Of a DNA stretch of 64,000 nt, positions 28,808 to 30,392 are shown piece by piece. Made by a program: the position numbers and the translations under genes. Position 1 is the stretch's first letter. Every line of letters begins with the position of its first letter. The DNA lies in the sequence record MN850603.1. One strand, written 5' to 3'. The notes below the pieces were generated by a model. It was not told the origin of the DNA and made no database searches. It saw only the letters and a list, made by a program, of their open reading frames with translations. The stretch comes from Escherichia phage pinkbiff.

Positions 28808-28883
28808 TACTCCATATCGGATTCGAACCGATACATAACACAGATTTTAAGTCTGGCCTCTCTGCCAATTGGAGTAATGGAGC
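28808..28883 (-). tRNA. tRNA with anticodon UAA (Leu-type), class-I length
   Basis: perfect acceptor actccat/atggagc and T-arm atcgg-attcgaa-ccgat; anticodon loop CUUAAAA; variable region only 6-7 nt; A73. Confidence 0.55.
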
Positions 28884-28888
28884 ATTGG

Positions 28889-28961
28889 CGGGGGATGTTG
28901 GAATTGAACCAACTTCTTCGATTTCAAAGACCGAGGTTTTAACCTTGTAAACTAATCCCCT
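28889..28961 (-). tRNA. tRNA-Gln (UUG)
   Basis: T-arm gttgg-aattgaa-ccaac, anticodon stem tcgat/accga loop reading UUG, G73; 1:72 is an A-C mismatch. Confidence 0.6.
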
Positions 28962-28969
28962 TTAAATCT

Positions 28970-29527
28970 TTACTTTCTCAGTGGATGAATAAAGAATGCC
29001 AACATAACTCTTTCCCTTGAGAATGCTCTTTCTTCTGGGACAACACTTTTTAGTTTCCATCCAACATAGATTCTCCAGTAAAACTGTTTACCAAAGACTT
29101 TAATTGACGGAATAAAAGCGAATAATCCCCAAGCATTGTTGTTCCACATTAGGAGATAACCTGTCTGATTATCTTCGGGGTCAGAACTTACGTTGATATT
29201 ACCTTTCCACTTAGTAACATCTTTTACATCTCTTCCTAATACATGGTAAGAGAAGTTATAAGCTTTGTTTCTCCAGAGCCATCCGACTCTCTGCATGTAG
29301 ACACCCAGCTTACCAATCTTTCTAATCTTAGCCCATCTTTTAACGTGACCCTCATCACCATCAATTGGGTTGTCATATGTCTCCATCCATCTGAACCCGA
29401 AAGGTAAGTGTCCTTTCTTCTCACTGTAGAATGGAACTACAAAAGGTGCTAAGATAACTGCTAAGATTGCTGCAAATGGCTCTAACAAAGCTAAGAAAAT
29501 CCATGAAGCATACTTCAAATATCTCAT
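28970..29527 (-). CDS. membrane protein embedded in tRNA island
   Basis: 185 aa; N-terminal hydrophobic segment WIFLALLEPFAAILAVILAPFVV; fits between tRNA-Gln (UUG) and tRNA-Arg (ACG). Confidence 0.45.
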   Translation of the reverse strand: MRYLKYASWIFLALLEPFAAILAVILAPFVVPFYSEKKGHLPFGFRWMETYDNPIDGDEGHVKRWAKIRKIGKLGVYMQRVGWLWRNKAYNFSYHVLGRDVKDVTKWKGNINVSSDPEDNQTGYLLMWNNNAWGLFAFIPSIKVFGKQFYWRIYVGWKLKSVVPEERAFSRERVMLAFFIHPLRK

Positions 29528-29549
29528 CTAAATAGCCTCTTTAAATTGG

Positions 29550-29622
29550 CGCAGGATAAGGGATTCGAACCCCTATTAACAGCTTCGTAGACTGTTGCTC
29601 TATCCATTTGAACTAATCCTGC
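29550..29622 (-). tRNA. tRNA-Arg (ACG)
   Basis: acceptor gcaggat/atcctgc, T-arm aaggg-attcgaa-cccct, anticodon loop reading ACG. Confidence 0.7.
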
Positions 29623-29739
29623 TTACCTACGAGAACACCATACAGTTTTTCACAAACTTTGTTTTTACGTCTGTTTAGGTATGACGCTCTAAACTTTTTT
29701 GCGATGGAGTTATTACTCATGGTGCTCTCCTCAAATTGG

Positions 29740-29814
29740 TGTTCCAAGACGGATTCGAACCGTCACTAATACAAGGTTTGAGCTTGCATCCTCTGCCAAT
29801 TGGGATACTGGAAC
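29740..29814 (-). tRNA. tRNA with anticodon CAA (Leu-type), class-I length
   Basis: acceptor gttccaa/ctggaac, T-arm gacgg-attcgaa-ccgtc, anticodon loop CUCAAAC; variable region about 6 nt; A73. Confidence 0.55.
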
Positions 29815-29818
29815 ATGG

Positions 29819-29890
29819 TACTCACTAAAGGACTTGAACCTTTTTCTTCATCTTGTAAGGGTGATGTTTTACCATATAAACTAAGCGAGT
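29819..29890 (-). tRNA. tRNA-Val (UAC)
   Basis: acceptor actcact/agcgagt, T-arm aaagg-acttgaa-ccttt, anticodon loop CUUACAA, A73. Confidence 0.65.
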
Positions 29891-29988
29891 GTGAAAGAGG
29901 TCTGAAGTTGTGCCGCTAACTCAACTCCGTGGAATTTGTTACGGTCTTCAGTTGACACCAGCGGTCTTTCACTTGACCTCTGAATTGG

Positions 29989-30061
29989 TGCTCCCACAAG
30001 GATTCGAACCCTGATAAGTTGCTTACAAGGCAACCGTAATAGCCAATTATACGATAGGAGC
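29989..30061 (-). tRNA. tRNA-Thr (UGU)
   Basis: T-arm caagg-attcgaa-ccctg, perfect anticodon stem gttgc/gcaac, loop reading UGU, A73. Confidence 0.7.
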
Positions 30062-30071
30062 ATTAATTTGG

Positions 30072-30143
30072 AGCATCCAGAGGGAATCGAACCCTCAACC
30101 TCAGTTTGGAAGACTGTAATTTTCCCGTTTAAACTATGGATGC
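30072..30143 (-). tRNA. tRNA-Gly (UCC)
   Basis: acceptor gcatcca/tggatgc, T-arm gaggg-aatcgaa-ccctc, anticodon loop reading UCC, U73. Confidence 0.7.
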
Positions 30144-30152
30144 ACTAATTGG

Positions 30153-30225
30153 TGGAGAAGCAGGGAATTGAACCCTGTACTTAAGTTTGCAAAACTTATG
30201 TTTTAACCATGTAAACTACATCCCC
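30153..30225 (-). tRNA. tRNA-Ala (UGC)
   Basis: T-arm caggg-aattgaa-ccctg, perfect anticodon stem taagt/actta, loop UUUGCAA; acceptor stem contains the G3:U70 wobble pair that is the alanine identity element; A73. Confidence 0.75.
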
Positions 30226-30234
30226 AATGTCTGG

Positions 30235-30307
30235 TACAGGTGGAGGGAATTGAACCCGTCGTCTTACTGATTAAGAGTCAGCCGCATAACCATTTTGCTA
30301 CACCTGC
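30235..30307 (-). tRNA. tRNA-Lys (CUU)
   Basis: acceptor acaggtg/cacctgc, T-loop aattgaa (T-stem only 3 clean bp), anticodon loop CUCUUAA, A73; paralogous to tRNA at 31549..31621. Confidence 0.6.
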
Positions 30308-30317
30308 ATTAATTTGG

Positions 30318-30392
30318 TGGGAGACAAGGGATTCGAACCCTCAAACATCTCGTTCTAAGCGAGATAGGTTTACCAATTACCATCAATCTCCC
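30318..30392 (-). tRNA. tRNA with anticodon UAG (Leu-type), class-I length
   Basis: acceptor gggagac/atctccc, T-arm aaggg-attcgaa-ccctc, perfect anticodon stem tctcg/cgaga with loop CUUAGAA; 5-nt variable loop; A73. Confidence 0.6.

Follow-up and report, generated by a model that had tools for sequence, protein, structure and literature searches.

A stretch of 64,000 nucleotides (nt) from Escherichia phage pinkbiff (sequence record MN850603.1), referred to here as the window, comes from a Felix O1-like myovirus and holds an island of 26 transfer RNA (tRNA) genes, every one of them on the minus strand. Three genes of this island carry the leucine anticodons UAA, CAA and UAG on bodies with a short variable region, and they are the subject of this work (Table 1). 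A preliminary description, made from the sequence alone, had found three tRNAs of 75-76 nt here, with variable regions of 5-7 nt, and offered two explanations for them: unusual leucine tRNAs, or tRNAs charged with something else. Which of the two is it? And what does a leucine tRNA still offer its synthetase once the variable arm is gone?

The positions first given for the three tRNAs, for which no strand was named, are those of the genes called by ARAGORN, minus the encoded CCA, and all three belong to the Rfam tRNA model (RF00005), whose gathering score is 29. Measured without CCA, Leu(UAA) has 76 nt and Leu(CAA) and Leu(UAG) have 75 nt each. Their anticodon loops (CUUAAAA, CUCAAAC and CUUAGAA, respectively) and the A73 present in all three are as first read. 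Counted with anticodon stems of 5 base pairs (bp), the variable regions are GUUAUGU (7 nt) in Leu(UAA), AUUAGU (6 nt) in Leu(CAA) and UGUUU (5 nt) in Leu(UAG), each with U48. None of these is the stem-loop of more than 10 nt that defines a class II tRNA, and all three genes have what defines a type I tRNALeu, namely a leucine anticodon, a variable loop of about 5 nt and class I length. The serine and tyrosine tRNAs of the same island provide an internal contrast, having kept the long variable arms that the preliminary description ascribed to them. That observation holds in all its elements.

Leu(UAA) and Leu(CAA) share one D-arm, C13-AAUUGGCAG-A22, with a 3-bp D stem. The D-region of Leu(UAG), UAAUUGGUAA-A22, reads U-AAUUGGUAA-A22 and has one additional nucleotide ahead of A14; its 3-bp D stem lies one register off (G-C, G-C, U13-A22), and the minimum free energy fold likewise pairs GGU with ACC. 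Leu(UAA) has a G1-U72 pair and a C27.U43 mismatch. Single-sequence minimum free energy folds (z from -1.6 to -2.2) misfold Leu(UAA) and are uninformative; in no fold of the three genes does a long arm or a different anticodon appear.

Table 1. Positions of the leucine tRNA genes and of other features of the window; tRNA genes as called by ARAGORN.
Feature	Position	Strand	Description	RF00005 hit or score
tRNA-Leu(UAA)	28805..28883	-	79 nt with encoded CCA	28808-28883, 47.5 bits
tRNA-Leu(CAA)	29737..29814	-	78 nt with encoded CCA	29740-29814, 44.0 bits
tRNA-Leu(UAG)	30315..30392	-	78 nt with encoded CCA	30319-30391, 43.7 bits
Phage tRNA island	27610..32782	-	26 tRNA genes, including the three Leu	24 of 26 recovered
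tRNA-Ser(GCU)	27690..27782	-	class II, 93 nt, 21-nt variable arm	
tRNA-Ser(UGA)	30648..30737	-	class II, 90 nt, 20-nt variable arm	33.2 bits
tRNA-Tyr(GUA)	32137..32224	-	class II, 88 nt, 15-nt variable arm	
tRNA-Phe(GAA)	28535-28610	-	weak T stem, acceptor mismatches	43.3 bits
First CAU-anticodon tRNA	32454-32530	-	1:72 mismatch	
Second CAU-anticodon tRNA	31465-31541	-		
Places where the island is mosaic against Felix O1	29986-30061, 30150-30225, 30975-31051, 31388-31463, 32054-32131			
DUF2828 + DUF7788 protein	32948-34363	-	471 amino acids	
Immunoglobulin-like protein	36440-37825	+	461 amino acids, four immunoglobulin-like domains	

Host comparison, leucine identity and codon use

How do the short genes compare with the leucine tRNAs of the host? 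Thirteen regions of E. coli K-12, which together cover all 20 isotypes, served as a host sample. All five E. coli leucine isoacceptors (leuZ, leuX, leuW, leuQPVT and leuU) are class II, 85-87 nt long with variable regions of 13-15 nt, so that the initial statement that bacterial tRNA-Leu is normally class II is right for the host. They share U8, G9, a 3-bp D stem, a purine-A mismatch at 13:22, the D-loop AAU(U/C)GGUAG followed by A22, U48 and A73. The phage tRNAs resemble them in the anticodons UAA, CAA and UAG, in U48 and A73, in the D-loop AAU(U/C)GG-U/C-AG followed by A22, in the 3-bp D stem with a 13:22 mismatch and in a 7-nt T-loop starting UUC. They differ in their variable regions, which are 5-7 nt where the host has a 13-15-nt stem-loop. 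They also differ at position 13, where the host has G or A and two of the three phage tRNAs have C, and at position 9, where the host has G and the same two have A. With Leu(UAA) as the blastn query, no match came from any of 5,426 complete E. coli genomes, which left no host gene to be named as its nearest relative. Given the D-arm architecture, U48 and A73 that they share with host tRNALeu, the three genes are, as judged by sequence, class II-style leucine bodies in which the variable stem-loop has been swapped for a short loop.

The elements by which E. coli leucyl-tRNA synthetase (LeuRS) recognises its substrates lie outside the arm. In the passages on E. coli of a review and of a study on Streptomyces (PMC9976931, PMC6614811), the identity set is given as A73, A14 with U8, the A15:U48 Levitt pair, G18G19 and A20a, together with the D/T-loop contacts G18:U55, G19:C56 and U54:A58. 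Neither the long variable arm nor the anticodon is required, and E. coli tRNALeu variants without both are still charged (PMC9976931). All three phage tRNAs hold the full set (A73, U8:A14, A15:U48, G18G19, A20a, U54, U55, C56 and A58), with the register in Leu(UAG) offset by the one inserted nucleotide. How specific is this core for leucine? A signature made of the D-region AA-N(1-3)-GG-N-A-N followed by A22, plus U48 and A73, was found in 29/29 short and 129/141 long leucine tRNAs and in none of 541 tRNAs of other isotypes, among the 711 tRNAs of the viral loci listed. In the E. coli sample and in the window, too, leucine tRNAs are its sole carriers.

Annotation and published isotype models agree with this. 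The Felix O1 orthologs are annotated as tRNA-Leu in the RefSeq record, and Table 1 of the 2010 Felix O1 genome paper also lists them so (PMC3185647). Shigella phage Sf14, a close relative, has the same 26-tRNA island, and for its three orthologs the tRNAscan-SE isotype models, a check proposed in the preliminary description, place leucine first: Leu_TAG at 67.4 (next Ile2, 65.7), Leu_CAA at 49.1 (Lys, 36.1) and Leu_TAA at 60.2 (Lys, 54.2) (PMC12482277). The close relatives Sf15, Sf17, Sf18 and Sf19 are 98.7-100% identical to the window's leucine genes. Our own anticodon-blind position-weight classifiers, trained on 636 viral-locus tRNAs with the short leucine tRNAs left out, performed weakly. 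On whole bodies 7 of the 26 window tRNAs were classified correctly and leucine came first for none of the three; on unpaired and tertiary positions 10 of 26 were correct and leucine came first for UAA, tied for first for CAA and second for UAG, with scores near 0. Classifiers this weak have no weight on either side of the leucine question, which agrees with the 14 of 26 Sf14 island tRNAs called 'inconsistent' in isotype (PMC12482277).

Would another amino acid be attached, or would the tRNAs stay uncharged for translation, with the phage partly recoding UUA, UUG and CUA? The class I shape is unlike that of every host tRNALeu, and E. coli LeuRS failed on the type I tRNALeu of Streptomyces (PMC6614811). 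Moreover, for half of the Sf14 island's tRNAs the best score comes from the model of a non-cognate isotype (PMC12482277), and phage tRNA bodies are therefore poor guides to identity. Against this, the bodies lack what other synthetases look for. Of the other identities that do not depend on the anticodon, alanine is excluded by the lack of G3:U70, pair 3:70 being U-A, U-A and G-C, and serine by the lack of both a long arm and G73. The remaining synthetases need anticodons that are absent here, which is established knowledge (see the review PMC9976931). The leucine-specific core is intact, leucine is the top model in Sf14, and host tRNAs read the same codons as leucine anyway.

The codons themselves also speak against recoding. 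UUA and CUA make up 29% and 12% of the leucine codons in 67 open reading frames (ORFs) of the window (16,261 codons), compared with 15% and 4.7% in 16 E. coli genes, a 2-2.6 times enrichment; this codon use fits a decoding role of the three tRNAs. Against 89 homologs of the terminase with some 40-58% identity, leucine is the commonest residue at 8/9 UUA and 3/4 CUA sites, and the picture is no different at CUU sites, a codon for which the phage encodes no tRNA; the terminase sites give no sign of recoding of UUA or CUA. We hold charging with anything other than leucine, or a lack of charging for translation, to be extremely improbable, and of the two explanations first offered it is the unusual leucine tRNA that is supported, by virtue of the identity set, the orthologs and the Sf14 models.

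Our preferred reading, to which we would give a probability of roughly 0.85, is that the three genes are functional phage-encoded type I (armless) leucine tRNAs charged by host LeuRS. Each keeps the D-arm plan of a bacterial class II tRNA-Leu, with a 3-bp D stem, a mismatch at 13:22 and a D-loop of 9 nt, AAUUGG-Y-A-R, and has 5-7 unpaired nucleotides, the last being U48, in place of the variable stem-loop. The reading builds on gene structure, conservation, covariation, the identity set and codon statistics, and it predicts that the genes are expressed, that host LeuRS charges their products and that the ribosome uses them. The tRNAs would be processed from the island transcript and would then have leucine attached by host LeuRS. 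Once charged, they would decode UUA and UUG, UUG, and CUA with other CUN codons by wobble, respectively. Such codons are enriched in this phage, which is AT-rich, and the host serves them poorly.

Several points weigh against functional charging by the host. In the literature found, the only natural bacterial type I tRNALeu to have been tried is tRNALeu(CAA) of Streptomyces coelicolor. The E. coli enzyme did not leucylate it, and of the prokaryotic LeuRS tested, the authors credit that of Streptomyces alone with handling both types (PMC6614811). That tRNA has the loop ACAGC with C48, and A73 lies outside its identity set (PMC6614811); since the phage tRNAs keep A15:U48 and A73, the negative result need not apply to them. 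When the long arm of S. coelicolor tRNALeu(UAA) was replaced by a short loop, the Michaelis constant rose 16-fold with the Streptomyces enzyme (PMC6614811). The phage tRNAs may therefore be weaker, indeed poor, substrates of LeuRS, if the analogy holds. The genes also have blemishes of their own, the irregular D-arm of Leu(UAG) and, in Leu(UAA), the mismatch in the anticodon stem and an odd 7-nt variable loop.

The closest cellular parallel is this same S. coelicolor tRNALeu(CAA), described by Fan et al. in 2019 (PMC6614811). Like the phage tRNAs, it combines a leucine anticodon and a bacterial-type body with a 5-nt variable loop, and it too occurs beside class II leucine tRNAs in one compartment with a single LeuRS. 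The minimal working loop in that study was 5 nt, and the window tRNAs have 5-7 nt. The two differ in their determinants: C48 and an A73 that is no identity element in S. coelicolor, A15:U48 and A73 of the E. coli-type set in the phage. They differ in setting as well, in that the S. coelicolor gene is cellular, whereas the phage tRNAs are carried by a virus and have to work with enterobacterial LeuRS. Animal mitochondrial tRNALeu(UUR) is another leucine tRNA of class I length, and its identity rests on A73 and A14 (PMC9976931). It has a dedicated LeuRS and is floppy and rich in mismatches, with reduced conservation of the D- and T-loops; the phage tRNAs keep G18G19 and the T-loop.

Conservation and relatives of the short genes

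The 5.5-kb stretch around the leucine genes is 95-97% identical to the Felixounavirus tRNA islands found in Felix O1 and in about 230 related phages of Escherichia, Salmonella and Shigella. Against Felix O1, Leu(UAA) and Leu(CAA) are 100% and Leu(UAG) 98.7% identical, with neighbouring ORFs at 92.7-97%. The three genes are no chance matches, being kept in some 270-345 phage records; at 99% identity or more, Leu(UAA) is present in 215 records and Leu(CAA) in 159. Leu(UAG) occurs in two variants, whose anticodon-stem differences compensate each other. In an alignment of 37 distinct short tRNA-Leu from unrelated phages, U8, A14, A15, G18, G19, A20a, A22, U33, A35, U48, G53, U54, C56, A58, C61 and A73 are invariant (37/37). 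Across these sequences 97.4% of the cells of the short-arm cloverleaf are paired, a figure partly built in because ARAGORN pre-selects foldable sequences, and 19 of 20 pairs show double changes. The covariation score is 1.06, compared with 0.25 after shuffling and at most 0.20 in slid controls.

These data bear on whether the genes are instead decaying or non-translational relics, that is, pseudo-tRNAs, processing signals or decoys that have merely a tRNA-like shape. Their Rfam scores of 44-47 bits lie below those of most neighbours (54-65 bits), the mismatches of Leu(UAA) and the D-arm of Leu(UAG) would suit decay, and Salmonella phage FG1m gets by with a chimeric Leu(CAA/UAA) gene, having lost an intact Leu(UAA). 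A relic would hardly be expected to persist as near-identical sequences across hundreds of genomes, to vary as Leu(UAG) does with compensatory changes in the anticodon stem, or to keep invariant those nucleotides that matter solely for LeuRS recognition and tertiary folding. CCA is encoded in all three genes, and unrelated phages, Lactobacillus phage Bacchae among them, retain all three anticodons as a set. We consider decay or a non-translational role very improbable.

The FG1m gene (locus L005, 3999-4076) deserves a description of its own. Its first 65 nt are those of Leu(CAA) and its last 26 nt those of Leu(UAA), so the acceptor strands no longer pair, and the Arg(ACG) gene, ORF and Gln(UUG) gene that lie between the two leucine paralogs in the window are missing. 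By its sequence, it looks like a deletion by recombination between two short leucine genes.

Distant blastn matches to the three genes are likewise short tRNA-Leu. They occur in Tequintavirus S131 and many other T5-like phages, in Aeromonas phage AhSzw-1 and in Erwinia Ounavirinae. Lactobacillus phage Bacchae has three, with the identical anticodon set UAG, UAA and CAA, and Myxococcus phage Mx1 has two; an Enterococcus phage and a Mycobacterium prophage also carry the short type. The D-arm motif and A73 recur in the short leucine tRNAs of other phages and of mobile bacterial arrays, along with a loop of 5 nt that has U as its last nucleotide. Five is the usual length, from which Leu(UAA) and Leu(CAA) of the window depart with loops of 7 and 6 nt. 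T5 itself was considered as a carrier of a short gene and rejected: its Leu(UAG) (locus L259, 9625-9709) is a class II tRNA of 85 nt beside Ala(UGC). For the tRNAs of T5, annotation notes in its record describe amber-suppressor tests made by replacing the anticodon. At the same position beside tRNA-Ala(UGC), S131 has a short Leu(UAG) of 74 nt (locus L260, 5997-6073). The S131 tRNA is identical to the window's Leu(UAG) in the variable loop and T arm, differs at two positions of the 3' acceptor strand and does not have the additional D-region nucleotide. The long T5 and short S131 genes in one place, together with this identity to the window gene, suggest, as far as sequence comparison can tell, that T5-like and Felix O1-like phages have exchanged tRNA cassettes.

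How widespread is the short type? A pattern with a fixed leucine D-loop, anticodon-loop frame and T-loop, but with no constraint on the variable region, matched at least 120 loci in IMG/VR. The 172 tRNA-Leu in the loci listed are bimodal, 29 with variable regions of 5, 6 or 9 nt and 143 with 10-25 nt, which makes the short type 17% of tRNA-Leu among the matches listed. In these loci the short leucine genes sit in tRNA-rich islands in which serine tRNAs stay long. Short and long tRNA-Leu occur together in four of them (L032, L070, L110 and L112). Two tRNA-Tyr of 79 nt were seen in the listed loci with short leucine genes (L019-L138), and class II tyrosine tRNAs may also lose the arm in some phages.

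The same pattern limited to short loops matched at least 120 loci in bacterial genomes. The matches listed are mostly solitary chromosomal genes of Actinomycetota (Nocardia, Mycobacterium, Gordonia, Rhodococcus, Corynebacterium and others), and a handful are densely packed arrays, with 17-26 tRNAs in 8 kb. Among the bacterial short leucine tRNAs tabulated from these matches, U48 is present in 127/127 and A73 in 126/127, and C13 in 103/103 of the solitary ones. The D-arm motif of the phage genes, with U48 and A73, was seen in 139 short leucine tRNAs from bacterial genomes and in 29 from viral contigs. Several of the arrays (L147, L149, L204, L208, L231 and L233) hold more than one short tRNA-Leu, with differing anticodons, and resemble phage tRNA islands; array hosts include Asanoa, an Acidobacteriota metagenome-assembled genome (MAG), Cylindrospermum and a Rhodocyclaceae MAG. 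The rarity implied by the preliminary description was thus overstated, since short leucine tRNAs are common in the tRNA islands of phages and in bacterial genomes, there mostly of Actinomycetota. A short-loop tRNALeu(UAG) has been noted in passing in a horizontally acquired mycobacterial tRNA cluster (PMC6582537). In the literature searched, no discussion of the short arm was found for phages of the Felix O1-like or T5-like kind: the Sf14 and 2010 Felix O1 papers are silent on it (PMC12482277, PMC3185647), and a paper on tRNA-dependent lysogeny, which concerns a phage tRNA-Leu(CAA), has nothing on arm length. Armless tRNA-Leu is a known kind, under-discussed and common in phages.

Some other features of the island and its surroundings were noted. 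The ORFs flanking the island include those for the large terminase, the major capsid protein, the tape measure and a tail fibre. The lowest Rfam score in the island belongs to Ser(UGA), for which the ARAGORN call finishes on CC, not CCA. The first CAU-anticodon tRNA has a 1:72 mismatch, as initiator tRNAs do; for the second, elongator Met and lysidine-dependent Ile2 are candidate identities, and the isotype models call both tRNAs 'inconsistent' in Sf14. Against Felix O1 the island is a mosaic: Thr(UGU) matches over 19 nt only, Asp is 89% identical, Ala(UGC), Arg(UCU) and Ile(GAU) have no blastn hit, and the remaining tRNAs are 98.7-100% identical. The Felix O1 island is about 1.3 kb longer and has three HNH endonuclease genes. 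The DUF2828 and DUF7788 protein adjoins the tRNA island and is annotated as an 'RNA-binding protein' or 'vWFA protein' in relatives, and the protein with immunoglobulin-like domains is encoded on the strand opposite to most of its neighbours.

Arm loss and tRNA-targeting defence

Why would a phage keep leucine tRNAs without the arm? One proposal accepts that they are functional leucine tRNAs and holds that the armless form is kept to escape nucleases or toxins acting on the class II arm, making them a counter-defence and not a simple codon supplement. The short family recurs in phage islands and in mobile bacterial tRNA arrays of unrelated hosts, and the long T5 and short S131 genes at one position look like the swapping of cassettes. 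There are precedents for attack on such tRNAs: one report has Septu cutting the variable loop of tRNATyr (PMC13096335), and human SLFN11 targets and cuts type II tRNAs (PMC13191261). Rescue of infections by phage tRNAs is also known, from PARIS and Retron-Eco7.

On the other side, no bacterial nuclease specific for tRNALeu or its arm was found in the literature searched. Bacterial Schlafen was considered as a class II-specific nuclease and rejected, as the one characterised cuts class I tRNAs. The serine and tyrosine tRNAs of the window's island retain their arms. Among the matches listed, the short type also occurs as an ordinary gene standing alone in chromosomes, mostly of Actinomycetota, where evasion is no obvious driver. 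We find it unlikely that the armless form is kept for this purpose; evasion of arm-directed defences is an attractive but unsupported idea for the loss of the arm. Equally doubtful is a wider version, in which the genes of Felix O1-like and T5-like phages, Herelleviridae, the myxophage and the bacterial arrays would form one horizontally shared armless lineage, kept because defences or toxins keyed to the arm can neither recognise nor cut its members. Were this version true, it would also show enterobacterial LeuRS charging natural tRNALeu of type I in vivo, which goes against the view now held that, of the prokaryotic enzymes tested, the Streptomyces one alone does so.

To return to the reading of the three genes as functional armless leucine tRNAs, its consequences for annotation are simple: the genes are tRNA-Leu and are labelled correctly. 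Its consequences for recognition reach further. The 2019 Streptomyces study presented a type I tRNALeu beside class II as a rare case and described E. coli LeuRS as charging class II only (PMC6614811). If E. coli and Salmonella can use the short leucine tRNAs of Felix O1-like and T5-like phages, enterobacterial LeuRS already has armless substrates in nature. The likely discriminating feature would then be A15:U48 rather than the arm, and the phage genes would offer ready-made compact leucine tRNA scaffolds. The short phage tRNAs also provide a simple test of whether tRNA shape, beyond the anticodon loop, aids escape from tRNA-targeting immunity. The main value of the three genes lies in this, a ready experimental test both of LeuRS recognition and of immune evasion based on tRNA shape.

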